Assembly: GCA_001871125.1 (NCBI GenBank) | Contig: MNXB01000105.1 | Location: 1-63,060, forward strand | Source: Elusimicrobia bacterium CG1_02_37_114 | GTDB taxonomy: Bacteria > Elusimicrobiota > Endomicrobiia > CG1-02-37-114 | Direction of reading: 5' to 3' | Length of the DNA stretch: 63,060 nt | In this document: positions 4,783 to 47,883 of the stretch, piece after piece | How positions within the stretch are numbered: position 1 is the stretch's first letter | How the letters are laid out: each line of letters opens with the position of its first letter | Program-made: the position numbers and the translations under genes | The notes under the pieces: generated by a model | Database searches by the model: none | Told to the model about the DNA's origin: nothing | What the model saw: the letters and a program-made list of their open reading frames with translations, nothing else

Positions 4783-4868
4783 AAGGGTAAACCCTTAATT
4801 CCAGGAATTTACCCTTTAGGGTTTTATCCTTCAGGATTTTACTGGAATTTATCCTTCAGGATTTTACT
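4780..4868 (+). repeat. Modular repeat family B, copy 1
   Basis: taaaagggtaaacccttaattcc..accctttagggttttatccttcaggattttact; recurs at 14969, 32181 (reverse), 47826 and 56935. Confidence 0.9.
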
Positions 4869-9578: not shown

Positions 9579-9650
9579 TTTTATCTCCTTTGCCTTGCAA
9601 AGCCCCAGAGTATTGTTTTACTTCGTTTTATGAAGTAAAACATCGTGGGG

Positions 9651-10496: not shown

Positions 10497-10556
10497 TTTG
10501 CTTGAACTCAAATGATAAATATTCAGTGAACCAACAGTAGGTTCCTTAGGAACCAC

Positions 10557-12956: not shown

Positions 12957-14096
12957 ATGAAAGTAACGTATATAGCGAATGAATATCCACCGAATGTTTA
13001 TGGAGGAGCAGGGGTACACTTGAAATATTTATCAAAAGAGATTTCAAAATTAATGGATGTTGAGGTGAAATGTTTTGGCGGCGGTGAAAGAATGGAAGGT
13101 AACATTAAAGTCACCGGTTATGAAATGTGGGATAGATTAACAGGCGGGTATGACCCAAGGTTCAAAAGTGCACTCGGAGCTGTTTCTATAAATTTAGCGA
13201 TGGCCAGGGATGGCATTGATTCAGAAATAGTTCACACGCACACCTGGTATGCAGCATATGCAGGATATCTGGCAAAGCTGCTCTATGGAACAAAGTTCGT
13301 GTTGACCTGCCATAGTCTTGAACCGTTACGTCCCTGGAAGAAGGACCAGCTGGGCAGTGCGTATAATCTCAGTACCTGGTTAGAAAAAGTCGGTGTTGAA
13401 TCCGCTGACAAAGTTGTTGCTGTTTCATCATTTATGAAAGAAGATATTCTGAAGTACTTTAATATAAAGGAAGAAAACCTTGCCGTTGTCCATAATGGAA
13501 TAGATTTAGACATATGGAAGCGCAAACCATTAAGCGACTCTCTAAAAAAAGAGTATGGTATAGAAGACGACTATATACTTTTTGTTGGCAGACCGACGCC
13601 GCAGAAAGGCATGGAATATTTGGTAGAAGCTGCAGATGACATTGATGCGCAGATAGTAATGGGGGCTGCGGGCGCTGATACTAAAGAATACGAAGAAAGA
13701 ATGAAATCAAGAGTTGCAAAGAAAAAGAACATTTTGTGGATACATAAACTTCTGAAGGAAGATGAATACGTGCAACTCTACAGCAGTGCAAAAGTTTTTG
13801 TATGTCCATCAGTATATGAACCGTTCGGGATAATAAACCTGGAAGCGATGGCTTGCAAAACACCCGTTGTTGCAAGTGCAGTTGGCGGGATAAAAGATGT
13901 CGTTATACCGGAGAAAACAGGTCTGCTTGTCCAGCCGGCAGAACCCAAACAAATCTCCTCCGCAGTTAATAGATTGTTAAAAGATAAAGGACTATCTGAG
14001 AGAATGGGCGAAAACGGTAGAGCGAGAGTTGAAGAAAAATTCAGCTGGACAAAAATCGCTCAACAGACGAAAGAATTGTACGAATCCTTGATTTAA
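12957..14096 (+). CDS. glgM: GT4 glycosyltransferase, GlgM/GlgA Corynebacterium-type (maltose-1-phosphate synthase-like)
   Basis: EYPPNVYGGAGVH, HTHTWYA, HSLEPLRPWK..QLG, YEPFGIINLEAMAC; adjacent to glgE. Confidence 0.8.
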   Translation: MKVTYIANEYPPNVYGGAGVHLKYLSKEISKLMDVEVKCFGGGERMEGNIKVTGYEMWDRLTGGYDPRFKSALGAVSINLAMARDGIDSEIVHTHTWYAAYAGYLAKLLYGTKFVLTCHSLEPLRPWKKDQLGSAYNLSTWLEKVGVESADKVVAVSSFMKEDILKYFNIKEENLAVVHNGIDLDIWKRKPLSDSLKKEYGIEDDYILFVGRPTPQKGMEYLVEAADDIDAQIVMGAAGADTKEYEERMKSRVAKKKNILWIHKLLKEDEYVQLYSSAKVFVCPSVYEPFGIINLEAMACKTPVVASAVGGIKDVVIPEKTGLLVQPAEPKQISSAVNRLLKDKGLSERMGENGRARVEEKFSWTKIAQQTKELYESLI

Positions 14097-14164
14097 ACGG
14101 CAGCATAGTTGAATGCATGGGGCCGTTTATCCCAGCGAATAGTCCGAATTCGGACTGCGAGGGG
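14094..14164 (+). repeat. Bipartite element H, copy 1
   Basis: taaacggc..gccgttta-tcccagcgaatag-tccgaattcgga-ctgcgagggg; homologous to 32752-32841. Confidence 0.7.
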
Positions 14165-14207
14165 TAATTTTATTAATGGTTCCAAAATTTTTTCCGATTT
14201 CGGACTC

Positions 14208-14237
14208 TTGACAACCACTGAAAAATTTTGGTATAAT
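14208..14237 (+). promoter_or_regulatory. Consensus sigma70 promoter
   Basis: TTGACA-18 bp-TATAAT, with gggag SD before ATG 14264. Confidence 0.7.
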
Positions 14238-14263
14238 AAAACCAATGAAGGGAGATATAACAA

Positions 14264-14524
14264 ATGGCAATAGTAAATACTTTAAAGATTTATGAAGATT
14301 TAAGGACAAAACTTCAAGATGAGCCAGCAAAAGCAATTGCTGAAACTATTGAGCGTTCTCTTGAAGAATACCGAGAAAACCAGAAGGAGTTTCTCGTAAC
14401 GAAGACAGAGTTTAGAGAAACAATTGCTAATTTACGCGCAGAACTTATCAAATGGATGTTTATTTTCTGGATTGGACAAATAGGTGTAATAACAGGGATA
14501 CTTTTTGCATATTTTAAGAAGTAG
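14264..14524 (+). CDS. DUF1640-like small coiled-coil protein with C-terminal TM helix
   Basis: FLVTKTEF..LRAELIKWMFIFWIGQIGV pattern, good SD. Confidence 0.7.
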   Translation: MAIVNTLKIYEDLRTKLQDEPAKAIAETIERSLEEYRENQKEFLVTKTEFRETIANLRAELIKWMFIFWIGQIGVITGILFAYFKK

Positions 14525-14825
14525 ATTTAGAAATACTGAAATTAAATTGAATAAGTCGGGGGAAGTATTAGTTCGGGGGCAAGGAAAATTATTCCAAGAG
14601 TTATTCAAACAGCTGAAATTCACAGATGAAGAAATTGAAAAATTACTAGGTGAAAATTATAAGCGTCCCTTTTTTTTCAAGTTCAAATGATTTGTTTATA
14701 CGAAGTTATCGTAGTTCCATCTTTTACTATGTTTTACCGTCTTATATGCAAGCCGTTGCCGTTGACAAGTTTTTTTGGCGTATTGTGCTGTTGATAACTT
14801 CGTAAAAAAATTTTCCGCCCTCCTC

Positions 14826-14854
14826 TTGACAACGATAAATTATATTGTTATAAT
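14826..14854 (+). promoter_or_regulatory. rRNA operon promoter
   Basis: Perfect TTGACA-17 bp-TATAAT about 200 nt before 16S. Confidence 0.8.
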
Positions 14855-14884
14855 ATATGGTTTGGAAAATAGAATTTTATACAA

Positions 14885-14895
14885 TGTTCTTTGAA
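14885..14895 (+). promoter_or_regulatory. rrn leader boxA antitermination site
   Basis: tgttctttgaa; second copy in the ITS at 17016-17027. Confidence 0.6.
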
Positions 14896-14968
14896 TTACT
14901 TTGAATTATTTGTCGCATTCTAATGAGCATACTATATAGTTAACATTTCAAATTCTTGAAAAAAAGTA

Positions 14969-15036
14969 TAAAAGGGTAAACCCTTAATTCCTGGGTAAAC
15001 CCTTAACTCCTGGAGTTAATCCTTCAGGATTTTACT
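14969..15036 (+). repeat. Family B copy in the pre-16S leader
   Basis: Same modules as 4780-4868. Confidence 0.85.
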
Positions 15037-15052
15037 TGAAAATTTTTAAATT

Positions 15053-16628
<1,576 letters not shown>

Positions 16629-16738
16629 TAAGGAGTCAAAGTTTTAGATTTGATTCTAGGTCGGTTCATTAGCTATACTAGTGTGCTCATCGGATTGCGA
16701 TAAGTTGTTAAATAATTGGTAACTATTCAGTCAACCAG

Positions 16739-16814
16739 TAGGAATTAAATCTTTAGCCTTTTAATAAAAGCCTAAAGGCTAAATTCCTATAAAAGCCTAA
16801 AGGCTAAATTCCTA
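16739..16814. repeat. Family C cluster in the ITS: one degenerate inverted copy plus two tandem 25-bp units
   Basis: taaaagcctaaaggctaaattccta at 16765-16789 and 16790-16814. Confidence 0.85.
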
Positions 16815-16827
16815 TTTTTAAAAGAAG

Positions 16828-16901
16828 GGGCCTATAGCTCAGTTAGCTAGAGCGCACCCCTGATAAGGGTGAGGTGAGAGGTGCAATTCCTCTTAGGCCC
16901 A
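16828..16901 (+). tRNA. tRNA-Ile(GAT)
   Basis: gggccta/taggccc acceptor stem, caccc-ctGATaa-gggtg anticodon arm; CCA not encoded. Confidence 0.95.
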
Positions 16902-16927
16902 TTAGTAAAAAGTTCTTGACATGGCAC

Positions 16928-17000
16928 GGGGATGTAGTTCAGCTGGGAGAACATCCGGTTTGCATCCGGAAGGTCAGGGGTTCGATCCCCCTCATCTCCA
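16928..17000 (+). tRNA. tRNA-Ala(TGC)
   Basis: ggggatg/catctcc acceptor stem with G3:U70, tccgg-ttTGCat-ccgga, gttcga T-loop. Confidence 0.97.
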
Positions 17001-17015
17001 CTTTTGATTGAATAT

Positions 17016-17027
17016 TGTTCTTTGACA
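17016..17027 (+). promoter_or_regulatory. ITS boxA
   Basis: tgttctttgaca. Confidence 0.6.
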
Positions 17028-17067
17028 TTTTTTTATATTAAAGTAGGTATCAGCGTCTTAAAGAATT

Positions 17068-17106
17068 CATCCCGATGTCAGATTTCGTGAGAAATCTATC
17101 GGGATG
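17068..17106. repeat. Family A hairpin in the ITS before 23S
   Basis: catcccgat..agatttc-gtga-gaaatct..atcgggatg. Confidence 0.75.
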
Positions 17107-17634
17107 GGATGAAATGATATGGCCAAGTAAGAAAGGGCATACAGTGGATCTCTTGGTGAAGGTCGTTGATGAAGGCCGTGGTAAACTGCGATAAGGTGCG
17201 GTGAGGAGCAAACATCCTGTGATCCGCACATTGCCGAATGGGGAAAACCGCCCCGATGCAAATCGGGGCACTATGATATGAATACATAGTATCATAGGAA
17301 TAACCCAGGGAAGTGAAACATCTCAGTACCTGGAGGAAAAGAAATCGAAAGAGATTCCCTTAGTAGTGGCGAGCGAACAGGGAAGAGCCTAAACTTGTCC
17401 CGATGCAAATCGGGATGAGGGTTGTAGGGTTTTAACAGTCCCGCTTCGGTGGGACAGGAAGTTACAAATGGAGTCTATAGTTGAATGGTCCTGGAATGGC
17501 CAACCATAGATGGTGAAAGTCCAGTAGATAAAATAGATTTCACTTCCTCGTTAGAATTCCTGAGTATCATTGAACACGTGAAATTCAGTGAGAATCCGCC
17601 CGGACCATCGGGCAAGGCTAAATACGAACCTTCA

Positions 17635-17665
<31 letters not shown>

Positions 17666-19242
17666 ATGAAAAGAACCCCTGATGGGGAGTGAAATAGAAC
17701 ATGAAACTGTATGTCTACAAGCAGTCAAAGCACTATGTCCTGATTCCGAGCAATCGGGAGAAGGAAATGTGCGATGGCGTGCCTGTTGAAGAATGATCCG
17801 GCGAGTTACTTTAACGACCAAGTTTAAGTCCGGACTGAATAGGTCCGGATGAAACGTAGGGAAACCGAGTCTTAATAGGGCGAATAGGTCGTTGGAGTAG
17901 ACCCGAAGCCAAGTGATCTATCCCTGGCCAGGTTGAATCCTGCGTAATAGCAGGAGGAGGACCGAACCATTTAGTGTTGCAAAACTACTGGATGAGCTTG
18001 GGATAGGGGTGAAAGGCTAATCTAACTTGGTGATAGCTGGTTCTCCCCGAAATAGCTTTAGGGCTAGCCTGATAGTTTGAATTCGAGGGGTAGAGCACTG
18101 GATAATGTAGGACCTGCAACCCAGGTTCCGAATTTAACCAAACTCCGAATACTCGAATGGACACTATTGGAGTCAGTTTGTGCGGGATAAGCTGCACATG
18201 CAAAAGGGGAACAGCCCAGACCATCGGTTAAGGTCCCAAAATTGAAGTTAAGTGGAAAAGGACGTATTATTGCAAAGACAGCTAGGAGGTTAGCTTAGAA
18301 GCAGCTATCCTTTAAAGAGTGCGTAACAGCTCACTAGTCAAGCGATTTTGCGCCGAAAATGTCCGGGGCTAAACTTCATACCGAAACCATGGCTGTCCCG
18401 ATGTAAGTCCGAATTTGGACTATCGGGACGGGGTAGGGGAGCGTTCTATCAGCAATGAAGATAGACCGAGAGGACTATTGGAGTTGATGGAAGTGAGGAT
18501 GTCGGAATAAGTAGCGATAATGGTTGTGAAAATCAACCACGCCGAAAGCCCAAGGTTTCCTTGAGCAATGTTCGTCAGCTCAGGGTTAGTCGGTCCTAAG
18601 CTGAGGCCGAAAGGCGTAAGCGATGGATATCCGGTTAATATTCCGGAACCATTCTGGAGTCGTTAGTCACTAACTTTGTGCGCATTAGAGTATGGTTATC
18701 TCCGTGTTGAATTACGGGGTTTAATCCCGCCGTGAGGCGGGAGAATACGACCCTCGAGAAATCGGGGGGAAGTAACTGAATCTGGTGCCAAGAAAAGCAA
18801 AGTTTAGGAGTCTCCGGGATGACCGTACCGCAAACCAACACAGGTGGGTAGGGTGAATAACCTAAGGCGCGCGAGTGATTTGCCGCTAAGGAACTCGGCA
18901 AAATTGCCCTGTAACTTCGGGATAAAGGGTTCCCCCGATTTATCGGGGGATTCAATAAAGAGTCTCATGCGACTGTTTAACAAAAACACAGGTCTCTGCT
19001 TAAATCGTAAGATGATGTATAGGGACTGACGCCTGCCCGGTGCTAGAAGGTCAAGAGGAGTTGTCATCTCTGACGCAAGTTGGGGAGAAGCGATGAATTT
19101 AAGCCCTAGTAAACGGCGGCCGTAACTATTGTTTGGACCACAGTAGTTGTAAAATCTGGCTATATGCTGGAAAATCCTGGTATGCTAACAGTACTCCTGT
19201 TAATGTTGATAAGAACAGGACGTGACAATCTGTTAGATAGGG

Positions 19243-19303
19243 CTGCGTATTCGCACGAATAAGTGCGAATGAGTTACGCAGGACGGCGAGAAGGTGAGCC
19301 GGC
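19243..19303 (+). repeat. Element G, copy 2, inside the L1917 intron
   Basis: ctgcgta-ttcgcac-GAATAA-gtgcgaa-tgagt-tacgcag-gacggc-GAGAAGGTGA-gccggc. Confidence 0.8.
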
Positions 19304-19340
19304 GGGACAATCAGCAGGAAAGACCTGAAATGAGGGCTCC

Positions 19341-19835
19341 ATGCGAACAGAAACAGGCTATTACTTAGCAGGTTTTGCAGACGGAGAAGGAAGTTTTAAT
19401 ATTTCTTTCAGACCGAGGCAAGATTATAAGTTACCGTGGAAAATCTCTCTCTGCTTTAACATTTCCCAGAAGGATAAAGTTATTCTGTCGTTATTCAAAC
19501 GTTATTTGGTTTGTGGAACATTAAGGAGCAGACCCGATGGTGTTTGGTATTACGAAGTAAATAACTTCAATGCGATATGGGAAAAGGTAATACCTTTCTT
19601 TAAGAAATATAGATTCTTGTCCGCTAAGAAAAAACGTGACTTCTCAAAATTTTGCCAGATAGCAGAAATGGTAAAAAAAGGGGAGCATCTTAAAGAAGAT
19701 GGTATCAGAAGAATTGTTGAAATAAGACGAGAGATGAATGACGGTGGTAAACGCAAGTATAGCAATACGGAGATCCTAAGTAAATTTCAGGAATCCCCAG
19801 AGACTATACGCCAGATCCCGATAACTCGGGAATGA
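19341..19835 (+). CDS. Single-motif LAGLIDADG homing endonuclease (L1917 intron)
   Basis: YYLAGFADGEGSFNI, FNISQK, IPFFKKY. Confidence 0.93.
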   Translation: MRTETGYYLAGFADGEGSFNISFRPRQDYKLPWKISLCFNISQKDKVILSLFKRYLVCGTLRSRPDGVWYYEVNNFNAIWEKVIPFFKKYRFLSAKKKRDFSKFCQIAEMVKKGEHLKEDGIRRIVEIRREMNDGGKRKYSNTEILSKFQESPETIRQIPITRE

Positions 19836-19890
19836 TATAGTCCGGTCTCCGATGAAAATCGGAGTTAACATAAACGAACGGTCCTAAGGT

Positions 19891-20563
19891 TAGTTTAATG
19901 CTAGCCTGTTCCGGTAGTAATATCGGAAGTAATATTTAACTATATGCGGGGAACTCCCCAAAAAATGTTTGATACTAGTCTATTCATTTGAATGGGACAG
20001 TAAAAAATCAACATACATGAGGACAATCCGCAGGGAAGGCATATTATGGATAATAATATGAACCCTCAGAGACTACACGTTGAATATCCGAATTGCAACA
20101 GCTTGACTCCTGACTGGATTGTGGGATTCGTAGACGGGGAAGGTTGTTTTCACATAGGGATAAATAAGAATGACGAAGTTAAATCCGGGTACCAGGTTTT
20201 ACCCGAATTGACAGTCGTCCAACACAAACGAGACATTCAACTTCTTTATCGATTACGCACATTTATGAAATGTGGCGTGGTAAGAAGTAATCATGGAGAC
20301 CGTTTCTGTTGGCGTGTCAGATGTCTTAAAAACCTTGTGGAAATAATTCTTCCATTTTTTGAAAAGCATCCATTGAAATCAAAAAAAAATATTGAATTTC
20401 ACAGATTTGCAAAGGTGGTGCGAATGATGGAGAAAGATAAACACCTTACCCAGGAAGGATTCCAGAAGATTATTAAAATTGCGGAAGAGATGAACAGGCA
20501 AGAGCAAAGAGAAATTCGGATAAAGATATAGTCCACACTTCGATGAAAATCGAGGATTTTGTG
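19891..20563 (+). mobile_element. Group I intron at 23S position L1931
   Basis: Follows ctaaggt (U1931), ends in G before agcgaaattcc; Q aatccgcag, R tcagagactacacg, S aagatatagtcc. Confidence 0.93.
20046..20531 (+). CDS. Single-motif LAGLIDADG homing endonuclease (L1931 intron)
   Basis: WIVGFVDGEGCFHI, TVVQH, ILPFFEKHPL. Confidence 0.93.
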   Translation: MDNNMNPQRLHVEYPNCNSLTPDWIVGFVDGEGCFHIGINKNDEVKSGYQVLPELTVVQHKRDIQLLYRLRTFMKCGVVRSNHGDRFCWRVRCLKNLVEIILPFFEKHPLKSKKNIEFHRFAKVVRMMEKDKHLTQEGFQKIIKIAEEMNRQEQREIRIKI

Positions 20564-20610
<47 letters not shown>

Positions 20611-21053
20611 CGAAATGAGAACTGTCTCGGCGGCAAACTCGGCGAAATTGTGGTGTCCGTGAAGACGCGGACTACCTGCGGATAGACGAAAAGACCCCGT
20701 GGAGCTTTACTATAGCTTAATATTGAATTACGGGGTAGGATGCGTAGCATAGGTGGGAGGCTTTGATTCCCCGATTTTGGTCGGGGAGGAGCCGCCAGTG
20801 AAATACCACCCTTTCTGCTTTGTGGTTCTAATTCTAGTCCGTGAAACCGGACGGAAGACAGTGTTAGGTGGGTAGTTTGACTGGGGCGGTTACCTCCCAA
20901 AGAGTAACGGAGGCGTTCAAAGGTACCCTCATCCTGAATAAAAGTCAGGAGTTGAGTGCAAAGGCATAAGGGTGCTTGACTGCGAGTCCGACGGGACAAG
21001 CAGGTACGAAAGTAGGACTTAGTGATCCGGTGGTTGCGTATGGAAGTGCCATC

Positions 21054-21090
<37 letters not shown>

Positions 21091-21121
21091 TATCGAGCCC
21101 GAGAGTCCATATCGACGGCTC

Positions 21122-21162
<41 letters not shown>

Positions 21163-21657
21163 GAGCAGGTCCCAAGGGTTTGGCTGTTCGCCAATTAAAG
21201 CGGTACGTGAGCTGGGTTCAGTACGTCGTGAGACAGTACGGTCTCTATCTTCCGTAGGTGTTGGAAACTTGAGGGGAGCTGGCCTTAGTACGAGAGGACC
21301 AGGCTGGACAAGCCTCTGGTGTGCCTGCTATCGCGTCAGCGGTATTAGCAGGGTAGCCATTGCTTGGATAGAATAACCGCTGAAAGCATCTAAGCGGGAA
21401 GTCAACCCTAAAACAAGGTTTCCCTCCCGATGAAAGTCGGGACTGAAGGTCACCAGAAGACTACTGGTTTTATAGGTCGGGTGTGTAAGTCCAGTAATGG
21501 ATTGAGCTAACCGATACTAATCGACCGTGCGGCTTGGCCATATCTTTTGATCCAAAACATAAAAGTTTAAATGTACAGGACGTGGAAATTATTTTTGTAT
21601 TTCCTTGATTTTCCTGCCTTTTACTTTTTATAAAACAATCATTTGTTGAATTTAATT

Positions 21658-21777
21658 TCTCGGTAGTTTTACCGGTGGGGCAACACCTGTTCCCATTCCG
21701 AACACAGCAGTTAAGCCCACCAGGGCCGATGGTACTTGGTGCCAATCCGCACCCGGGAGAGTAGGTTACTACCGGGA
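21658..21777 (+). rRNA. rrf: 5S rRNA
   Basis: cacctgttcccattccgaacacagcagttaag, gccgatggtac, gggagagtagg; terminal stem. Confidence 0.96.
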
Positions 21778-21820
21778 TTATCAAAAATGTTTTCTTGGCG
21801 TAAATTATAAAAGCATTTTT

Positions 21821-21877
21821 GCAAGGCTGAAAGCCTTGCCCTACAAATATTATTGTAGGGCAACCCTTTAGGGTTGC
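21821..21877. repeat. Back-to-back pair of GTAG-type REP palindromes (REPIN-like)
   Basis: Reverse complement of tGTAGggcaaggctttcagccttgc, then aatattat, then tGTAGggcaaccctttagggttgc. Confidence 0.7.
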
Positions 21878-21922
21878 GGATTTCTTGGGGAGTTTTAAAT
21901 ACATAATCAATATTTAATATCT

Positions 21923-22675
21923 TTGTTTTGTATAATCTGCTGTTTCAGTGGTATCCTTTATAGTTCGGAAACCCTGGATACAGCAGAACAGATTTCAAAA
22001 GGGAAATTTCGCACAGTTGTTTATTACACACAGACGAAGGCAAAACCAACCTTTCAGATGGTGGATTTTTCAACGACAACCGGTTGGGGGATAAATAAGG
22101 TTGATGGAGATAGTTCCTTTGGAAACGTAGTCGTTAAACTTGTGTTAAATCCTTTTGATAAATTGAATTGGTGGGCAAGAGCGGGAATGGTATCTGATTA
22201 TAAATTAGGGGTCCCTTCAACCGATACTCCTAAAATTGAATACACAAATATCTCTTCTTATAATGGCTATACTATTGGAGCGGGAGCAAAATATCAGGTT
22301 TTTCCTCAGACAGATTTCAATTGCGGTATTTGTTTGGACTTTGGTGTTGTTTATACTAATTACATTTTTAATAGAAAATATCAGGAAAATATCGGATATT
22401 CTGATTTATCAGGTACTAAATTTGAAGATACTGAATTTCACGCAAAATTTAATCTCAGCAGGAAGATTCGCAAGACAGAGCCTTATGGCGGCGTTAGTAT
22501 TTACAGAAACTGGTATAAATTTGGAAGCAATTCAGGGACAAAAGACAATATAAATGTTTTCGCAGGTTTAAAAGTCAAACTGCGTCAGTTGAAATGGTTA
22601 ATGTGTGAGGCGAATCTGATTGGCGAAACCAGCCTGTCAGCTGGTTTTTGTATGGCTGTGGGTTCACACGAATAA
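21923..22675 (+). CDS. Putative outer-membrane beta-barrel protein (start uncertain)
   Basis: Hydrophobic signal-like N-terminus, alternating aromatic beta-strand pattern (YTIGAGAKY, EPYGGVSIY, LSAGF). Confidence 0.55.
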   Translation: MFCIICCFSGILYSSETLDTAEQISKGKFRTVVYYTQTKAKPTFQMVDFSTTTGWGINKVDGDSSFGNVVVKLVLNPFDKLNWWARAGMVSDYKLGVPSTDTPKIEYTNISSYNGYTIGAGAKYQVFPQTDFNCGICLDFGVVYTNYIFNRKYQENIGYSDLSGTKFEDTEFHAKFNLSRKIRKTEPYGGVSIYRNWYKFGSNSGTKDNINVFAGLKVKLRQLKWLMCEANLIGETSLSAGFCMAVGSHE

Positions 22676-22716
22676 GTGTGAACAAGATCCACAGGACGGC
22701 GAGTCGGTGAGCCGTC
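22656..22716 (+). repeat. Element G, copy 3; its GAATAA loop supplies the ORF stop codon
   Basis: ctgtgg-gttcacac-GAATAA-gtgtgaac-aagat-ccacag-gacggc-GAGTCGGTGA-gccgtc. Confidence 0.85.
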
Positions 22717-22726
22717 GGGGAAAGCT

Positions 22727-23260
22727 ATGGAACAAACAGCTCAAAGAAAATACAAGTATGACTATAACCAGATTGCTAAGGGATTTGAAAGTATATCGGG
22801 TGTGATATTTACAGAATATAGTGGACTAACAGTAGGCGAAATGACAGAACTACGCGGGAAATTAAAAAAGCAGGCAGCTAAATACATTGTTGTAAAGAAT
22901 AGAATCACATCAGCAGTTTTGAAGCAACTTAAAATAACTGATTTGAATGATTTATTTAAAGGGCCCACCGCATTACTTGTTATTAAAGAAAGTATTGAAG
23001 AACCAATAAAGATACTTGTAGATTTTTCAAAAGAGCATGAGAACCTGAAGATAAAAAAAGGACTTTTTTCAGGGAGAATATTTGAACACGATAAAATAGT
23101 TAGTATTGCAAAACTGCCGAATAGAAATGTTTTGATAGCGGAGCTGGCATCATTATTGAAAACAAATTTAGTGAATATTTTAACTGTCTTACAGGCGCCT
23201 ATGAGAGATTTTATTAATGTGTTAGAGCAGATAAAAGTAAAAAAAGAGAAAGGAGAGTGA
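22727..23260 (+). CDS. rplJ: 50S ribosomal protein L10
   Basis: [24 protein letters not shown]; located before rplL. Confidence 0.92.
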
Positions 23261-23267
23261 GGAAACA

Positions 23268-23669
23268 ATGACAGGTAAAATTGATTCTAAGGAGTCAGTT
23301 GTCGAAACAGTTGCAAATATGAGTGTACTGGAGTTGTCCGAACTTGTCAAAGCACTGGAAGAAAAATTTGGTGTTAAGGCAATGGCCGGTGTATCAATGG
23401 CTGTGGCTGCGGGCGGCACAACTGCATCTCAGTCCCAGGTTGCCCAGTCGGTGGACCAGACCGAGTTTGACGTAATACTGTCAAGCGTTGGACAAAACAA
23501 AATAGCAGTTATTAAGGCGGTACGTGAAATAACGGGACTTGGTTTAAAAGAATCAAAAGATTTGGTTGATTCGGCACCTAAACCTATTAAAGAAGGAATA
23601 GATAAAAACCAGGCAGAAGAGCTTCAGAAGAAACTCACAGAAACTGGCGCAACCGTAGAACTGAAATAG
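23268..23669 (+). CDS. rplL: 50S ribosomal protein L7/L12
   Basis: [37 protein letters not shown]. Confidence 0.98.
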
Positions 23670-23707
23670 TTTTGTTGAATGTTGAGACCTGACCCCAGGA
23701 GAAGAGC

Positions 23708-26700
23708 ATGAAACAAATAAGTTTTGCTAAACTAAAACCGTTAGTTAGTTTACCTGATTTACTTGAGTTACAAAAAAATTCTTTTGAGGATTTCTTACAG
23801 GCAAACGTTGCCCCGAAAGACCGTAAAAAGCAGGGATTGCACCAGGCGTTTCTTGATGTTTTTGGCGATGAATCTAAAGGTGAAGGGTTAGTAACTTCTG
23901 ATGGCAGTTTAACACTGCAGTATCTTTATTATGTTATTGATGAACCCAGACGCACTCCCGATGAAGCAAGGGATAGGGATATGACATACGAATCACAATT
24001 AAAAGTATGGTTCAGGTTTTTACAGAAACTTGAAACAGGCAAAATCAAGGAGTTGGCAGAACAGGAAATTTATCTCTGTGAGTTACCCGTTATGACTGAA
24101 AGCGGTTCGTTTGTCATTAATGGTGCAGAGAGAGTTGTTGTGGCACAGATACACAGATCCCCGGGAGTCATATTTGAAGAAGATGAAGAGAAAAAGGTTT
24201 CACAGTTAGGGAAAAAACTTTATAAGGCAAGTGTTATTCCCTACCGTGGTGCCTGGCTTGATTTTGAATATGATTTAAATAACATTTTATACGTACACAT
24301 TGATAAAAAACGTAAAATACCTGTTACAACGTTATTGCGGGCAATAGGAATTGAATCCAATGAAGAAATTATCAAATTATTCTATACAACGGAAACTTTA
24401 AACAAGAGACAATTTGAACATGCTGAGACAAGAGTCCTTGCAGAAGATGCGGTTGACAGAAAAACAGGCGAAGTTATAAGAGAAACAGGACAGGAAATAC
24501 GCAAAGAACATATTAATATCCTTAAAGAAAAAGTTGAAGAGATAGAAGTTATCAAATTTGACCCCATTCTAAACGACATTACTGTCCTGTATACTTTGCA
24601 GGCTGACCCCGCCAGGACAAGAAAGGAAGCAGTTGATATAATATATAAAATTCTCAGGACAGCTGGATTTATAACACCAGAGATTGCGAAAGATTATCTT
24701 GATAATCTTTTGTTTAAACCAAGGAAATATGGCCTGACAAAAGTTGGTCGTTACAAATTAAATAAAAAACTCGGTAGCATACTCGGGGAATTAGAGGAAA
24801 AGCATAAGGATTTTAATTTTACCGTACCTTCCGAGAAGAAACATACTTTGACTAAAGAAGATATCATCGCCACCATTAAATACATAATTAATCTAAATAA
24901 TGGAGCCGGCGGTGAGATTGATGATATTGACCATTTAGGTAATCGCAGAATACGTGCGGTTGGTGAACTTCTTGAAAATCAGGTACGAATAGGTTTAATC
25001 AATTTAGCAAGATTTACCCGTGACAGGATGAACGCTGCTGATAAGAAATCACTGATCACTCCACGGAATGTAGTTAATCCCACATCTTTGGTTATCTTTA
25101 TAAACAGGTTTTTTGGTACTTCACAATTATCGCAATTTTTGGACCAGACTAATCCACTTGCAGAAATAACGCACAAGAGAAGATTCAGTGCACTTGGACC
25201 CGGTGGACTTCATCGTAAACGTGCAGGGTTTGAGGTACGGGATGTCCATTATACACACTATGGAAGGATATGCCCGATTGAAACACCGGAGGGTCCCAAT
25301 ATTGGTCTTATTACTTCAATGGCATGTTATGCCAGGGTGAATGAATACGGGCTTATTGAAACGCCATATTGTAGAGTAGCCAATGGCAAATTATCCGATA
25401 AAGTTGAATATATGACTGCTGATCGTGAAGATGAATATGTCATTGCCCAGGCTAATACTGAACTTGATAGAAATAATCGCATAGCAAAAAAATCAGTTTC
25501 CTGTATGTATCGGGGAGATGTAAAAGTTGTTGCTCCTCAGAAAGTTGATTTTATGGATATTTCACCCAAACAGGTCGTTTCACTTTCTACAGCTCTTATT
25601 CCTTTTCTGGAACATGATGACGCTAACAGGGCGCTCATGGGTTCAAATATGCAACGTCAGGCAGTCCCTTTGTTTATTACTGAAGAGCCTCTTATTGCCA
25701 CCGGCGTTGAAGAAAAAATTGCAAAGGATTCTTATGCAGTAATAACAGCTCAGCAGTCCGGAGAAGTGGTGTCAGTTACTGCAAATCAAATTGCTGTTTA
25801 TAACGACGACGATAAAGTTGATATCTACAGATTGAAGAAATACATTCGGACCAATCAGGATACCTGTATCAATTTTATTCCAATAGTTAGTAAGGGAGAT
25901 AAAGTAAAAAAAGGGGAAGTTATTGCTGATGGTCCGGGAACATCTAACGGTAAAATAGCTCTCGGCAAAAATGTCCTGGTAGCATTTATGTCCTGGGAAG
26001 GATATAATTTTGAAGATGCAGTAGTAATGAGTGAAAGACTTGTACGTGAGGATATTTTTACTTCTGTTCATATTAAGGTGTTTAGAATTGAAGCGAGGGA
26101 TACTAAAATTGGTCCTGAAGAGATTACACGGGATATTCCTAATGTAGGGGCCGATGATTTACTAAACTTAGATGAAAGTGGTATTGTAAGAATGGGTGCT
26201 GAGGTGGGTCCTGGAGATATATTGGTGGGTAAAACCGCACCTAAAGGCGAACAGCAGGTAACAATGGAGGAAAGATTACTTAAAGCGATATTCGGTAAAA
26301 AGGCAGAAGATGTTGTTGATGAATCATTGCGTGTTCCACCGGGTGTCAGGGGTAAGGTTATAGGTATAGAAATATCTGTACGCTGGGAGAAAATGACCAG
26401 AAAAAACGAGGCGAAGCGATTGGAAGAAATTAATGCTACGTTCAAAAATTTAGCTAAAGATTTGAAAGAGAAATCTCAAAATGCAGTTAGCCAGAAACAG
26501 GATAAGGAAGAACGGGAAAAAATAAAAAAATACTACGCACAGAAAGAGAAGGAATTGGAAGAAAAGAAAAAAAAGGAGCAGAAGCAGATTGAACGCGGAG
26601 ACGAATTGCCTATTACCGTGAATAAAGTTGTCAAAGTTTATATATCAGCCAGACGAAAAATACAGGTTGGTGATAAAATTGCCGGTCGCCATGGCAACAA

Positions 26701-27469
26701 AGGTGTTGTAGGGAAAATACTTCCTGTTGAAGATATGCCTTACCTACCTGACGGCACTCCTGTTGATATGATTCTTTCACCGTTATCCGTTCCTTCCAGA
26801 ATGAACGTTGGCCAACTTATGGAAACCATGCTTGGTTGGGCAGCAAAGTTTTTAAACGTATCAATGATATGTCCTGTTTTTGAAAGTGCTACTGAAGAAG
26901 AAATTATAGAAAAAGTTCGTGAAGCAAAGACATTCCTGCGATCAAAAGAAGTTCCTGAGAAATACCTGCCTACGGATGACTGTCGCATAACACTTTATGA
27001 CGGACGAACCGGCGAACCATTTATGGAAAAAATCACAATTGGATATATGTATATGATGAAATTAGGACATTTAGTTGAGGACAAAATACATGCAAGGTCC
27101 ACGGGCCCGTATTCACTTATTACAAGACAACCTTTAGGCGGCAAAGCCCAGTTCGGAGGGCAGAGATTAGGCGAGATGGAGGTATGGGCATTAGAGGGAT
27201 ACGGGGCTGCACATACACTGCAGGAATTCCTTACCGTAAAAAGCGATGATGTTATAGGCAGGACCAGAGTTTATGAATCAATAATTAAGGGAGAAGTATT
27301 TTCTGAGACGGGAGTACCCGAGTCTTTTATAGTACTGGTAAGAGAACTGCAGGGATTAGGTTTGAATATAGAATTGTTACATAGTAGCAGAGGTGATAAA
27401 GAAATAAGAGAAGTTAAAGAATCCAGGCCAGAACCTGTAAAGGCAAGCGTCCCCATTAAAACATTATGA
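23708..27469 (+). CDS. rpoB: RNA polymerase beta subunit
   Basis: [45 protein letters not shown]. Confidence 0.99.
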
Positions 27470-30400
27470 TGAGATCAACTTTCATAAGTCTGAAGAAGAA
27501 AAAAGTTTCTTCGGAACTTAATTTTTTTGATTTTGATGCTATTCATATAACCATAGCATCACCCGAGAAGATGCATTCCTGGTCATACGGTGAAGTAAAA
27601 AAACCCGAAACAATTAATTACCGGACGTTTAAGCCTGAACGGGACGGACTTTTCTGTGAACGTATATTCGGACCTACCAGAGACTGGGAATGTAATTGCG
27701 GTAAATATAAATTTGTCAAACATAAGGGTGTAGTATGTGACCGCTGTGGCGTTGAAGTAACGGAATCAAAAGTCCGACGTGAACGCATGGGGCATATTGA
27801 ATTGACAATACCGATTGCACACATATGGTACTTAAGGAAGCAGCCTTCCAGAATTGGTATGATGTTAGAAATGCCGCTGATTGACATTGAGAGAGTGACG
27901 TACTATCTAAAGTATATAGTACTTGAAGATTTAAAAGACATTGATGGCGAGGTTATATTAAAAGAGAAAAGGCTGCTTAGTTTGGAAGAGCATTATAAGT
28001 ATAAAGAAGAGTACAAGGATAAATTGAAGACTGATATAGGTGCAAATGCAATCCGTAGATTACTTGAAAAAATAGATTTACAGAATGAATTGAAAAGAAT
28101 TGAAACACAGTTAAAGAAAACAGAATCGGATCTGGAAAGGAGTAAGTTAACACGCAGGGTGCGTCTCGTAGAAGGATTTATTGAATCAAAAACAAGACCT
28201 GAATGGATGATAATGACTGTCCTGCCCGTCATCCCACCGGACTTGCGTCCTTTAGTACCTCTTGAAGGCGGGAGGTTCGCTACAAGCGATCTCAACGACC
28301 TATACCGACGAATAATAAATCGCAACAACCGACTTAAACATATTCGCTCACTTAAAGCGCCTGAGATAATGATAAATAATGAAAAGCGCCTGCTCCAGGA
28401 AGCTGTTGATTCTTTGATAGAAAACGGGGCACGCTCTGCTCCTGTCACAGGTACGGGTGGCAGACCCCTTAAATCTTTTTCTGATATATTGAAGGGAAAA
28501 CAGGGACGATTCAGACAGAATCTCTTAGGTAAACGCGTGGATTATTCGGGTAGAAGCGTTATTGTTTCTGGACCCACTCTAAAACTGCACCAATGCGGTA
28601 TACCAAAGGAAATGGCTGTTGAACTTTTTAAGCCGTTCATTATACATGAACTTATAAAACGTGAAAACGTTACTCTTAAAGCTGCCAAGAGAATGTTTGA
28701 AAAAAACAGACCGGAAATATGGAACATACTTGAAGAAATTACAAAAAGACATCCTGTCCTGCTGAATCGTGCCCCGACATTGCATAGAATAGGTATCCAG
28801 GCTTTTGAACCGGTGCTTGTTGAAGGGAAATCAATACAACTGCATCCTTTAACATGCGCTGCCTTCAATGCAGATTTTGATGGCGACCAGATGGCTGTCC
28901 ATGTACCGCTTTCCCCGCAGGCACAACTTGAATGCCGGGTACTTATGTATGCACCTAACAATATACTTTCCCCTGCCAGTGGCAAACCTGTAGCAATTGC
29001 AAGTCAGGACATGGTTTTAGGTTGTGCATATCTTACAACTCCCAAGAAAGGCGAAAGAGGCGAAGGGAGAATATTTTCTTCACCCGAAGAAGTTGTCTCT
29101 GCCTATAATTTAAGCGATCTGGCATTACATTCAAAAATAAAAGTTCAAAACATAAACCAGCTGCGATTACCCGGTATGAAAAATACTGAATTATTTGATG
29201 TGGAGAAATGGGGAAATGATTATACCACCTGCGGCCGGGTAATATTTAATGAAATTCTAACCGAAGAATTGAAACGTCTTTACGATGAAGATGACCCCTA
29301 CGCAACATATAAGATAACCATAGACAAAAAACAATTAACAAAGCTTGTTGAATTGTGTTTCCATAAACTCGGTCAATCTAAAACCGTTGCTCTCTTAGAT
29401 GACCTGAAGAAGTTAGGTTATAAATATGCGACGATATCAGGAGTATCCATTTCTGTATCCGATATGCATATTCCAGAGGAAAAAGAGAAATTAGTAAAAA
29501 GAGCGAAGGAGCAGGTTGGAGAGATAGAGGCTCAATTTCAGCAGAGCTTGATTAGTGATACGGAAAGATACAATAAAATTATTGATATATGGACCCACGA
29601 AACAGATAGAATTGCTGATTTGATGTTTGAAAAAATGAAAAAAGAACAGGATCTGCCCTACGTTCCCGATAGAATTCGTTTCAATCCGGTATATATGATG
29701 GCAAATTCCGGAGCAAGAGGTAATCGGGATCAGGTCCGACAGCTTGCGGGTATGCGGGGTCTTATGGCCCGGCCACAGAGGAAAATGACGGGGCAGGTTG
29801 GAGAGATTATTGAATCACCGGTTATATCAAATTTCCGCGAGGGGTTATCCGTCCTGGAGTATTTTATATCCACCCACGGTGGACGCAAAGGTATTGCAGA
29901 TACTGCGCTTAAGACTTCCGATGCGGGTTATCTGACGAGAAGGCTTGTTGATGCAGCACATAATGTTGTTGTGACCGAAGAAGATTGTGGCACAATTAAT
30001 GGAATAAAAATCGGTGCCCTGCAGAGCGGGGAGGAAATGATTGAATCCTTCAAGGAACGTATAGTTGGCAGGGTTGCACTTGATAATATTGTGTGGGTTT
30101 TAACAACAGAAAACGGTGAACCCAAAGAGGAAATAATAGTAAAAGAAGATGAACTGATTACACCCGAAAAATCCGATAAAATTATCCAGGCAGGTATTGA
30201 GCAAATCCGTATAAGGTCAACCTTAACCTGTGAATCAAAGATTGGTGTATGCGCGAAATGTTATGGACTTGGTCTTGCAACAGGCAAACTTGTTGAAGTA
30301 GGTGAAGCAGTAGGAATAATCGGAGCACAGTCAATTGGTGAACCGGGGACCCAGCTCACACTCAGGACCTTTCATATAGGCGGTACAGCGAGCAGGGTTG

Positions 30401-31686
30401 TCCGTCAGTCACAAATTTTTTCCCAGAGACCATCAGTCGTTAAATTCCATAATTTAAAAGCGGTCCGGGATAAATCCGGCGACTATGTGGTAATGACACG
30501 CAATAGCGAAGTTATTTTCATGGAATCCGATACTAAACAGCGTGATTCATACAAACTTCCCTATGGAGCAAAACTAAAAGTAAGAAATAATGCTGAAGTC
30601 AAAGCCAATGAACTTGTTGTTGAGTGGGATCCATACTATCTGCCTATTGTCACCGAATATGAAGGCACGGTTAAATTTGAAGATATTATTGAAGGTAAAA
30701 CAATGCGGAAGGAAAAAAGTAAAGTTATGGGATTGGAAGAAAGAATGATGATTGAACATCGTGGTGAAAAACTCCGTCCCCAGGTTGTCATAGTTAATAA
30801 AGAAGGTAAACGGATTGCAATGTATCCTCTTCCTGTAGATACTCTCCTTTCAGTGGATGAAGGAGATAAATTACATGCGGGCGATACCCTGGCAAGGATT
30901 CCTCAGGAAGTCCTTAAGAGCAAAGACATAACGGGCGGATTACCGCGGGTGGCAGAACTATTTGAAGCCCGACACCCGCACAATGCAGCTATTATATCAG
31001 AAATTGACGGTGTTATTAAACTTGGCATCACATCAAAGGGTTCACCTAAAGTAACCGTAATGGATGAACAATCCGGCATGACAAGAGAATATATTATTCC
31101 GACAGGACGGCATTTAGTTGTCTATGAAGGAGATAAAGTAGGGGCGGGTGAACCGCTGACAGACGGAGCTATAGACCCACACGATATTCTCAAAGTGAGG
31201 GGTGCCAAGGAAGTACAGGAGTTTCTTGTTAATGAAATCCAGCAGGTTTACCGACTCCAGGGTGTTATAATAAATGACAAACATATAGAAATAATAGTTC
31301 GGCAGATGCTCTCAAATGTCCGAATCATAAATCCCGGCGGCAGCAAGTTTCTGTATGGTGAAATCATACCCAAGAGATGTTATGACGAAGAAAGAAGGAA
31401 AACAGAACAGTTAAGAAAAAAAATTATGAAGGATAAAGGACGTGAAGAAGCAAATAAAATTAAAGCACCTGAAATCCAGCCGGTATTGCTTGGAATCACC
31501 AAGGCCTCGCTCTCCAGCGAATCATTTATTTCAGCTGCGAGTTTTCAGGAGACAACACGCATATTAACCGAAGCCGCCACTATGGGACAGACAGACTATT
31601 TAGAGGGATTAAAAGAAAATGTTATAATCGGGCATTTAATACCAGCAGGTACAGGAATCAAACAAATAAGGGGGGACGCTACTTGA
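27466..31686 (+). CDS. rpoC: RNA polymerase beta' subunit
   Basis: [37 protein letters not shown]. Confidence 0.99.
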
Positions 31687-31782
31687 ATTTTGCTACTTTT
31701 TCACAAATGAAATGAATTCAAGATAATCGTCCGAATTCGGACGCTACAGTAGTAAAAAGTAGCAAAATTCAAGTAGCGTCCC
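31673..31782. mobile_element. MITE-like element D, copy 1, with perfect 29-bp TIRs
   Basis: gggacgctacttgaattttgctacttttt ... aaaaagtagcaaaattcaagtagcgtccc. Confidence 0.85.
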
Positions 31783-31796
31783 TATTAAGAGACAAT

Positions 31797-32183
31797 ATGC
31801 CAACAGTAAATCAACTTATAAGGTCTATTCGACAGAAAATCAGAGGAAAAACTAAATCACCCGCACTTACGGGATGTCCTCAGCGCAGAGGTGTGTGTAC
31901 CCGTGTCTACACGACTACACCAAAGAAACCTAACTCTGCACTTCGTAAGGTTGCACGGGTGAAATTGACTACGGGCATTGAAGTTACGGCATATATTCCT
32001 GGTGTAGGACATAATTTACAGGAACATTCAATTGTGTTGGTTCGCGGTGGCAGAATAAAAGATTTGCCGGGTGTGAGGTATCATATTATAAGGGGTAGTT
32101 TAGATGCTACGGGTGTTGAGGGAAGAAAGCAGGGACGTTCAAAATACGGTGCAAAACTGGTTAAAACAGCAGCACCAGCTTAA
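31797..32183 (+). CDS. rpsL: 30S ribosomal protein S12
   Basis: [25 protein letters not shown]. Confidence 0.99.
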
Positions 32184-32253
32184 CTCCAGGGTAAAATCCT
32201 GAAGGATAAAACCCTAAAGGGTAAATTCCAGGAATTAAGGGTTTACCCTTTTA
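32181..32253 (-). repeat. Family B copy in reverse orientation
   Basis: Reverse complement of the 4780 modules. Confidence 0.85.
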
Positions 32254-32274
32254 CTTCAAGAAAGGTAAGGTAAA

Positions 32275-32754
32275 ATGGCAAGAAAACCATTAAGACCAAG
32301 ACAGCGAAGAGAAAAAACCGCACCTGATTATAAATATAACAATATATCGGTGAACAGGTTCATCAATAAAATTAACTACAAAGGCAAAAAAACTGTTGCT
32401 GAAAAAATTTTATATGGTGCATTTGATATAATCAGGGAGAAGACCAAGCAAGAACCGTTAGAAGTTTTTACTAAGGCGATGGAAAACGCAAGACCGCTTG
32501 TCGTTGTGAAAGCTCGACGGATTGGCGGAGCTACTTATCAGGTGCCTGTGGAAATGTCCCGAACACGGGGTGAAACAATAGGAATGAGATGGATTATTAA
32601 TTCCGCACGGGAAAGAAAAGGTCTTCCAATGAAAATCAAACTTGCCGAGGAACTGATGTCAGCCTACAAAAAAGAAGGTTCGGCAGTAAAGAAAAAGGAA
32701 GATACTCACAAAATGGCTGATGCAAACAAGTCCTTTGCACATTACAGGTGGTAA
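32275..32754 (+). CDS. rpsG: 30S ribosomal protein S7
   Basis: RRIGGATYQVPVE, KKKEDTHKMADANKSFAHYRW. Confidence 0.99.
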   Translation: MARKPLRPRQRREKTAPDYKYNNISVNRFINKINYKGKKTVAEKILYGAFDIIREKTKQEPLEVFTKAMENARPLVVVKARRIGGATYQVPVEMSRTRGETIGMRWIINSARERKGLPMKIKLAEELMSAYKKEGSAVKKKEDTHKMADANKSFAHYRW

Positions 32755-32841
32755 ACGGTAGTCCCGAGTAATTCGGGACATGTCACCGTTTACCCCCAGC
32801 GATTAGTTTTCAAACTTGTCCTGTTTGAAAACTGCGAGGGG
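32752..32841 (+). repeat. Bipartite element H, copy 2
   Basis: taaacggt..accgttta-cccccagcgattag-[hairpin]-ctgcgagggg. Confidence 0.7.
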
Positions 32842-40997: not shown

Positions 40998-41230
40998 AAA
41001 AGAAAACTCGTATAGGAACCGTTGTTTCAGATAAGATGAATAAGACACGTGTTGTGCTGGTTGAACGCACGGTCCGTCATCCTCTTTATAAGAAAGTCAT
41101 TCATAAGACTAAGAAGTATTATGTCCACGACGAAGAAAACATTTCCCATACCGGTGATAAAGTTAAAATAATAGAGACAAGACCGCTGTCTAAACTTAAA
41201 CGATGGAGAATAGAAGGGGACGCTACTTGA
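40994..41230 (+). CDS. rpsQ: 30S ribosomal protein S17 (C-terminus replaced by element D)
   Basis: [26 protein letters not shown]. Confidence 0.97.
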
Positions 41231-41340
41231 ATTTTGCTACTTTTTCACAAATGAAATTTTGTTTTGTATACACGAACTATGAATATTTATTAATGAATTT
41301 TTACTAGTATAGAAAGTAGCAAAATTCAAGTAGCGTCCCC
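41216..41340. mobile_element. MITE-like element D, copy 2
   Basis: Same TIRs as 31673-31782 (one internal mismatch in the right TIR) with a different interior. Confidence 0.85.
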
Positions 41341-47809: not shown

Positions 47810-47825
47810 ATATAAGCATAAAGTA

Positions 47826-47874
47826 TAAAAGGGTAAACCCTTAATTCCTGGAATTAATCCTTCAGGATTTTACT
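47826..47874 (+). repeat. Family B copy, short form
   Basis: taaaagggtaaacccttaattcctggaattaatccttcaggattttact. Confidence 0.85.
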
Positions 47875-47883
47875 TAACTAAAT

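Follow-up and report, generated by a model that had tools for sequence, protein, structure and literature searches.

The described systems closest to the element reported here are small structured repeats of other bacteria. The repetitive extragenic palindromic sequences (REPs) of proteobacteria, together with their bacterial interspersed mosaic elements (BIMEs) and REP doublets forming hairpins (REPINs), are mobilised by REP-associated tyrosine transposases (RAYTs) and are short, structured, lineage-specific extragenic repeats found behind stop codons; REPs near a stop codon can influence how mRNAs are translated and degraded. In Streptococcus pneumoniae, the BOX elements (boxA-boxB(n)-boxC) lie between genes, are built of exchangeable sub-units and form stable RNA structures, mycobacterial interspersed repetitive units (MIRUs) sit between the cistrons of operons with their ends coinciding with the flanking stop and start codons, and miniature inverted-repeat transposable elements (MITEs), Correia elements and Rickettsia palindromic elements are small non-autonomous insertions tolerated at gene ends. 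In make-up and position they resemble H, an element found in a 63,060-nt stretch of Elusimicrobia bacterium CG1_02_37_114 (contig MNXB01000105.1, positions 1 to 63,060 of the forward strand, from GenBank assembly GCA_001871125.1; the whole stretch is referred to as the window), and we take the likeness to the REP, BIME and REPIN sequences to extend to their transcription with the upstream gene and their stable hairpins.

We regard H, with a probability of about 0.55, as a lineage-specific modular structured dispersed repeat with a core of 71–90 nt which sits at TAA stop codons and is REP/BIME-, BOX-, MIRU- and Correia-like in kind. It differs from REPs in having neither a GTAG foot (the feet in H are GGYAG and WTAG) nor an inverted doublet of like units, and consists instead of two unlike modules in which the stems vary, the loops and junctions are fixed and the stop codon is included. 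BOX sequences are unrelated, and their modules are whole sequence blocks rather than a fixed scaffold with replaceable tips, and are not anchored to stop codons. MIRUs are tandem 40–100 bp units with small coupling open reading frames (ORFs), whereas H is single, dominated by hairpins and has no conserved ORF. Unlike the MITE, Correia and Rickettsia elements, H has no terminal inverted repeats and only a putative 3-bp TAA duplication, and we know of no autonomous insertion sequence related to it. H is therefore a lineage-specific relative of the small structured repeats of many bacteria, a known kind but a new family.

Several other identities were tried and rejected. H is not a REP, as it lacks the GTAG foot and the palindrome itself varies, nor a MIRU-type element or coding mini-ORF, as the frames opened by the internal ATG and their ends differ in the three full copies because the linker is 1, 2 and 1 nt long in copies 1, 2 and 3. 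A MITE was discounted since the ends are not inverted repeats and TAAACGGY/RCCGTTTA closes module 1 only, and an intrinsic terminator since a terminator scan has no hit at any of the three copies. No R''/R' cores (RYYYAAC ... GTTRRRY) of an integron attC site could be seen by eye, and the neighbours of H (rpsG/fusA, glgE/glgM and fhs/hydrogenase) are housekeeping genes in ordinary operons. Stop-codon read-through would meet an in-frame TAG after three codons in copy 1, and an rRNA mimic like an rplJ leader was dismissed as the rRNA genes contain no match to the scaffold (12-mer with up to two mismatches, 10-mer with up to one).

A fixed scaffold with variable hairpins

The sequence-only reading of the window had described a scaffold carrying two hairpins at two loci, each beginning with the stop codon of the preceding gene (glgM and rpsG). 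Both copies could be followed letter by letter, with some 45 scaffold bases in common, and the stop codons proved to be as described. Nor is H limited to these loci, as a third full copy lies on metagenome contigs of the same species and a degenerate relative elsewhere in the window, and the earlier reading is thus not refuted by a restriction to two sites. The copies and their parts are as follows.

Window 14094-14164 (71 nt), + strand: H copy 1, directly 3' of a GlgM-type GT4 gene; covariance-model score 68 bits
14094-14096: TAA stop codon of copy 1
14094-14101 with 14122-14129: outer stem of copy 1
14103-14116: hairpin 1 of copy 1
14117-14121: 3' bulge ATGGG of copy 1
14130: linker T of copy 1
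14131-14164: second module of copy 1
14165..14175, + strand: 3' flank of copy 1, TAATTTTATTA, with TAA directly after GGGG
Window 32752-32841 (90 nt), + strand: H copy 2, between rpsG and fusA; covariance-model score 104 bits
32752-32754: TAA stop codon of copy 2
32752-32759 with 32785-32792: outer stem of copy 2
32761-32779: hairpin 1 of copy 2
32780-32784: bulge ATGTC of copy 2
32793-32794: linker CC of copy 2
32795-32841: second module of copy 2, with the tip hairpin at 32807-32831
L075:13305-13393, sense: H copy 3, also on L092 (both metagenome contigs of the same species)
Window 9589-9650, listed on the + strand, antisense to the flanking genes: degenerate inverted relative of H; 32.5 bits, E ~2e-6 (covariance model)

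Copy 1 reads TAAACGGC-A-GCATAGTTGAATGC-ATGGG-GCCGTTTA-T-CCCAGCGAATAG-TCCGAATTCGGA-CTGCGAGGGG, with the hairpin tips GCAT agttga ATGC and TCCG aatt CGGA, and its TAA (14094-14096) is the stop codon of ORF 12957..14096, which matches TIGR02149 glgA_Coryne (the GlgM-type family) over its full length with 471 bits and has a GlgE-like gene upstream. Copy 2 reads TAAACGGT-A-GTCCCGAGTAATTCGGGAC-ATGTC-ACCGTTTA-CC-CCCAGCGATTAG-TTTTCAAACTTGTCCTGTTTGAAAA-CTGCGAGGGG, with the tips GTCCCGA gtaat TCGGGAC and TTTTCAAAC ttgtcct GTTTGAAAA; its TAA is the rpsG stop codon, fusA starts at 32855, and the spacer between the two genes is 100 nt long. In copy 3 the leading TAA is the stop codon of a full-length formate–tetrahydrofolate ligase (Fhs) gene, and a NiFe-hydrogenase small-subunit gene follows 29 nt 3' of the element. 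The scaffold of copy 3 is intact, and that of module 1 is perfectly conserved although it was absent from the search pattern. All three full copies thus start with a TAA stop codon and lie in sense orientation. In the degenerate relative, module 1 is cut down to a 5-bp hairpin (TTTGC-ctt-GCAAA) and module 2 (CCCCAGAGTATTG-TTTTACTTC-gttttat-GAAGTAAAA-CATCGTGGGG) keeps about 74% of the module 2 scaffold, with the GGGG end abutting the TAG stop (CTA, 9651-9653) of panC.

Chance or an assembly artefact, for which the small copy number is the only argument, can practically be dismissed as the source of the similarity, because shuffled sequences do not reproduce it and the copies recur in independent assemblies. 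The 12-mer CCCAGCGAWTAG and the 10-mer CTGCGAGGGG each occur exactly only at the two window H sites, and a 20-nt scaffold probe found no match in 100 dinucleotide shuffles with three mismatches allowed. The rpsG–fusA copy is identical base for base in six independent assemblies (NCBI, JGI and ENA), and copies 1 and 3 are each present on two metagenome contigs. Fold z-scores of the H copies range from -4.2 to -7.3, with copies 1 and 2 at -4.2 and -5.95 against shuffles of which none in 200 folded as well.

The two-hairpin fold is backed by compensatory changes. In a model-guided alignment of four sequences, which is fitted to the model, standard pairs make up 99.1% of the cells and 14 of the 31 pairs have changed on both sides; the observed covariation values were reached in 0/500 shuffles, and sliding the 3' partners by 1–3 columns left 37–53% paired. 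The outer stem includes one covarying position which is C-G in copies 1 and 3 and U-A in copy 2, and apart from this Y:R pair, one W position and the linker of 1–2 nt, the ~45 scaffold bases are invariant.

The hairpins behave differently from the scaffold. The copy 1 hairpin 2 sequence GTCCGAATTCGGAC recurs at 31729 in another repeat family and, with one mismatch, at 18407 in the 23S rRNA, and YCCCGA-loop-TCGGGR hairpins, including hairpin 1 of copies 2 and 3, occur ten times in the window against an expectation of 0.015 (six of the ten lie within 23S rRNA insertions). As these types recur outside H, part of the hairpin tips come from a shared genome-wide pool, and the others are drifted versions of one another. 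The earlier suggestion that the tips are swapped cassettes consequently stands for the part of the set which includes the GTCCGAATTCGGAC and GTCCCGA..TCGGGAC types. Its companion claim, that the cassettes are unrelated between copies, fails for hairpin 2 of copies 2 and 3 and the degenerate relative, which is a single 9-bp stem and 7-nt loop with paired substitutions: copy 3 carries a new version of the copy 2 hairpin in which five of the nine stem positions are alike and four are fully compensated double substitutions. The copies are also mosaic: copies 2 and 3 have an identical hairpin 1, but it is copies 1 and 3 that agree in the Y:R pair, W position and 3' tail, a pattern which points to recombination between copies or to modular assembly.

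Insertion at TAA stop codons and distribution

The rpsG–fusA locus can be compared with empty sites in relatives. The nearest S7 relatives of the source are 91% identical and the next at most 69%. In the 91% relative the junction reads ...TGG TAA cagtt ATG in two independent assemblies (L042 and L043), and in contig L119 it reads TAA aaaaa ATG; the spacers in the sister lineage are 17 nt for rpsL–rpsG and 5 nt for rpsG–fusA. A 67% relative has a 33-nt rpsG–fusA spacer without H, and the covariance model found no H in the 125-nt rpsG–fusA spacer of a 69% relative. On this comparison H at rpsG–fusA is a recent insertion, since the two closest relatives have a spacer of 5 nt. It should be noted that L119 (ENA ERZ27293413 k141_745718) is a 642-nt contig in which the 5' four-fifths of rpsG is near the window sequence and the 3' end of rpsG and fusA, 5 nt apart, are clearly diverged; it represents either an assembly chimera or a recombinant strain.

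The S7 protein ends in ...HYRW as it does in the relatives, and the GT4 and Fhs proteins align to the last residue of their family profiles. The host proteins are therefore untruncated, and in each of the three full copies H abuts the final sense codon plus TAA without a gap. This TAA also belongs to the 8-bp outer stem of H itself (TAAACGGY/RCCGTTTA), and the simplest reading is that H brings a TAA of its own and uses TAA as its insertion site, with survivors found only at genuine stops or in very short spacers; a sense insertion elsewhere in a gene would give a premature stop, so that only copies at or behind a genuine stop would persist. GGGG-TAATTTT follows both copy 1 and copy 3, and in copy 2, where the tail after the element is UUAGUUAAAG, there is a TAA 5 nt after GGGG. 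The second TAA would be either a target-site duplication, that is, the displaced original stop, or part of a U-rich 3' tail of H.

A covariance model built from the three full copies and run unfiltered on the window plus ~125 kb of DNA from the same species found the degenerate relative at 9589-9650 as the one further member, giving a tally of three full copies and one degenerate copy in this DNA. From two copies in ~109 kb sampled regardless of H, we estimate between a few and about a hundred copies per genome. The source species, an uncultured bacterium, is also present as metagenome-assembled genomes GCA_002323695.1 and GCA_002781045.1 and in several groundwater metagenomes.

Searches further afield gave no real matches. 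There was no Rfam 15 match at H, either at gathering thresholds across the whole window or at E values up to 10 at both window loci (the scan yielded rRNA, tRNA and a group I intron only, with sub-threshold noise at H), and nothing real was found in two scans of viral contigs. The module 2 pattern gave 35 hits in 185,579 GTDB species genomes, about the number expected by chance, all in unrelated genomes and none with a hairpin; most are in G+C-rich genomes and most are coding-like, and the source species itself is not among the hits. In JGI and ENA metagenome contigs the pattern gave 64 hits of which only copies 1 and 3, on two contigs each, are genuine, and this collection is incomplete because the scan missed copy 2 although one JGI contig carries it. 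A candidate in another organism (L068:8407-8455) has module 2 only, at 15.5 bits, with a 3' part that coincides with the end of the hemL coding sequence of the opposite strand, and is probably a chance match. A literature search on Elusimicrobia repeats found nothing relevant. With no real match in Rfam, GTDB, viral contigs or other organisms, H in recognisable form appears to be confined to a single species-level Elusimicrobiota lineage.

The module 2 loop and competing explanations for H

The internal loop of module 2, 5'-CCC AGC GA W UAG-[hairpin]-CUG C GA GGG-3', can be read as a kink-turn. A standard kink-turn has a canonical (C) helix ending in C-G, a three-nt bulge, tandem G.A/A.G pairs and a non-canonical (NC) helix (PMC5061560), and by its sequence the module 2 loop fits this consensus exactly. 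In copy 1 the putative parts are as follows.

Window 14131-14164, + strand: module 2 of copy 1 read as a kink-turn
14131-14133 (CCC) with 14161-14164 (GGG(G)): C stem
14134-14136: three-nt bulge AGC
14137-14138 (GA) opposite 14159-14160 (GA): tandem G.A/A.G pairs
A14139.C14158: 3b.3n pair
14140-14142 (TAG) with 14155-14157 (CTG): NC stem
14143-14154: tip

The CCC(C)/GGG(G) helix followed by AGC is invariant in the three full copies, so that the Watson-Crick C helix and the three-nt bulge are both present. In the sequence of all three, GA lies opposite GA as putative tandem pairs; the minimum free energy (MFE) model pairs the same bases otherwise. Module 2 thereby fits by sequence the definition of the standard kink-turn (PMC5061560). 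Standard kink-turns occur in Kt-7, U4 snRNA and box C/D RNAs and, in bacteria, in the SAM-I riboswitch, T-box and OLE RNA, but H belongs to none of the RNAs known to bear one, and its folding and protein binding are predicted only. Folding in Mg2+ alone requires 3n=G or 3b=C (PMC4382518). In H the 3b.3n pair is A.C or U.C, which is neither of the ion-folding types, and by this rule a kink-turn in H would be predicted to depend on a protein or a tertiary contact rather than on Mg2+ alone.

If H is a dispersed repeat of the kind we favour, it would spread within one species by sense insertion flush with TAA stops, either targeting or tolerating such sites only. H is very probably transcribed into the 3' and intercistronic regions of mRNAs; within the host mRNA, as a 3' untranslated region or an intercistronic spacer, it would fold into two adjacent stem-loops, of which module 1 would lock the stop codon in a helix and set a hairpin 6 nt downstream of it, and module 2 would be a hairpin with an invariant internal loop of standard kink-turn sequence. 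The contrast between an invariant scaffold and tips which vary freely and come partly from a pool suggests that a protein reads the scaffold, and this might be a mobilising enzyme or a kink-turn-binding protein. For the host the likely consequence would be a stable RNA which buffers mRNA ends and separates neighbouring cistrons. The mode of action would then be selfish spread limited by the element's own stop, combined with a stop-sequestering helix and a probable protein-dependent kink-turn serving as a block.

A number of observations weigh against this explanation. Only three or four H copies are known, with none in ~46 kb of additional species DNA reached via other IS3 transposase insertions and the window ends, so that H may be less numerous than a mobile repeat should be. 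No enzyme that might mobilise it, transposase or other, was identified, and the genes listed for the loci examined, which cover part of the genome, include neither a RAYT nor a Y1 transposase. The element has no terminal inverted repeats (5' TAAACGG and 3' GCGAGGGG are not complementary), and the TAA 'duplication' is exact in two of the three copies and may reflect a shared U-rich tail instead. For the module 2 loop, the MFE model prefers a 2x2 loop, 2 bp and a 2-nt bulge, and the degenerate copy has GU/GU where the full copies have GA/GA. Both strands fold about equally well and the variable stems are all Watson-Crick, so that a hairpin acting at the DNA level is also compatible with H.

Some of the same evidence could also describe a host-beneficial cis-regulatory RNA, a protein-binding (kink-turn) 3' or intercistronic element selected at stop codons and controlling termination, ribosome release or re-initiation on the next gene, or mRNA processing and stability. 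The scaffold is invariant and the stems drift by compensatory change, the three full copies are all flush with a stop and in sense, and hairpin 1 starts 6 nt after the stop codon, a spacing typical of ribosome-pausing structures. The 5-nt rpsG–fusA gap of the relatives is consistent with translational coupling, in place of which the source has 100 structured nt where no well-spaced Shine-Dalgarno sequence is apparent by eye, and the 3b.3n sequence predicts a protein-dependent kink-turn (PMC4382518). Nonetheless, H is absent at the same site in the nearest relatives, which implies that the host managed without it until recently, the three host genes have no function in common (they serve glycogen metabolism, the ribosome and C1 metabolism), the degenerate copy is antisense to its neighbours, and many other hairpin repeats of the genome occupy similar positions; no kink-turn-binding protein gene was identified either, though no search aimed at L7Ae, YbxF, YlxQ or OapC was made. 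We consider such a regulatory role unlikely. Less likely again is a recombination or transposition site acting as a single-strand DNA hairpin (IS200/IS605-derived, REP/RAYT or attC-like), with the RNA structure as a by-product. The nearly equal folding of both strands and the perfect palindromes of the variable stems would suit such a site, as would the recurrence of the same palindromes in unrelated contexts including rRNA genes, the presence of a REP-like GTAG-hairpin family in the same window, and the pairing of the internal TTTA with the flanking TAAA, which recalls the guide–target pairing of IS200/IS605 elements. However, H has two dissimilar modules whereas the two ends of IS200/IS605 elements, like the arms of a REPIN, resemble each other, the stems which such enzymes read are the variable part of H, the hairpin foot lacks GTAG and attC R''/R' cores are absent, the neighbours are housekeeping genes in conserved order rather than cassettes, none of the H copies has a Y1 transposase or integrase next to it, and a conserved U.G pair of module 2 becomes a C.A mismatch on the other strand.

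More ambitious, and a shade more doubtful than the DNA-level site, is the idea that H is a new class of stop-codon-targeting, protein-dependent kink-turn device, in which module 1 would clamp the stop, a factor on module 2 would gate ribosomes or RNases to the next cistron, and the tips would be exchangeable cassettes from the genome-wide pool that also builds rRNA expansion segments. An unconventional terminator or attenuator, formed by the module 2 hairpin and a following UAAUUUU, is very improbable. Copy 1 does end the glgE–glgM unit with no other terminator before the next promoter (14208-14237), and GGGG-UAAUUUU is found in copies 1 and 3, but the terminator scan passes over all three copies, the run of U residues is broken and does not start directly at the stem, copy 2 is situated within the conserved rpsL–rpsG–fusA–tuf run with the tail UUAGUUAAAG, and neither the conserved internal loop nor module 1 would have a role in termination.

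If the dispersed-repeat explanation is right, we see in miniature a compact genome with 5-nt spacers being colonised by structured repeats, and the position of the repeats exactly at stop codons is explained, as an element which starts with TAA survives only there. A fixed scaffold with replaceable tips would imply the copy-and-paste of mini-hairpins, something undescribed for the classical REP, BOX and MITE families, and the reuse of mini-hairpins in mRNA spacers, a second repeat family and 23S insertions points to the same process. H-type elements would also help annotation by explaining the unusually long, highly structured spacers in conserved operons of this lineage, and the kink-turn consensus makes module 2 open to a concrete and cheap biochemical test.

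Other repeats and features of the window

Many spacers of the source genome are arrays of mini-hairpins. Types which recur in the window far above chance are YCCCGA..TCGGGR, GTCCGAATTCGGAC, GGGTAAACCC, CCCTTTAGGG, TCCTTCAGGA, GCCTAAAGGC and AATTCCWGGAATT; within the 23S rRNA gene they are found at 17251, 17398, 18407, 18933, 19816, 20769 and 21425, and arrays in spacers occupy 4780-4867, 14963-15044, 32181-32274, 47807-47882 and 56917-56994. The 23S gene (17121-21541) is 4421 nt long and includes a group I intron (19881-20555, 69 bits) and several hairpin expansion segments, among them a nested insertion at 18395-18428 (GTCCCGAT-gta-AGTCCGAATTTGGACT-ATCGGGAC), and the 16S gene (15053-16627) carries an insert of ~43 nt close to the 5' end.

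A second family, at 31665-31782 and 41209-41339, is MITE-like with perfect terminal inverted repeats of 29–30 bp (GGGGACGCTACTTGAATTTTGCTACTTTTT...), unrelated centres and fold z-scores of -12 and -10. Both rpoC (...IRGDAT*) and rpsQ/S17 (...RIEGDAT*) take their final codons and TGA stop from the 5' arm of this repeat, and the element thus supplies a new C-terminal tail and stop codon. This family is probably the element G which the sequence-only reading had thought to share a related grammar with H, a proposal that our comparison does not bear out: the architecture of this likeliest candidate is different, the H covariance model does not detect it, and the two families have no more in common than one hairpin cassette and a tendency to adjoin or provide stop codons.

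The REP-like family referred to above (D5; 1706-1743, 10516-10553 and 51074-51133) has ACAGTAG followed by the hairpin GTTCYTTAGGAAC, that is, a GTAG foot and a palindrome, with one copy directly after a TAA stop and one locus formed by a tandem pair, and suggests a RAYT-type system in the source genome. An IS3-family insertion sequence (61694-62892, with HTH_Tnp_1 and rve ORFs) occurs at several different sites in the species across metagenome assemblies.

The end of rplA and the rplJ leader (22651-22719) are 80% identical over 69 nt to the genome's own 23S rRNA (19238-19306). We read this as possible L10-leader mimicry of the L10 binding site, which the matching 23S stretch would then represent, and the Rfam model makes no call on the rplJ leader at its gathering threshold. 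Finally, a perfect sigma-70 promoter (14208-14237; TTGACA, an 18-nt spacer and TATAAT with an extended -10 TG) lies 44 nt after copy 1 and precedes a small membrane-protein ORF (14264-14524), without a canonical terminator between it and the upstream operon.

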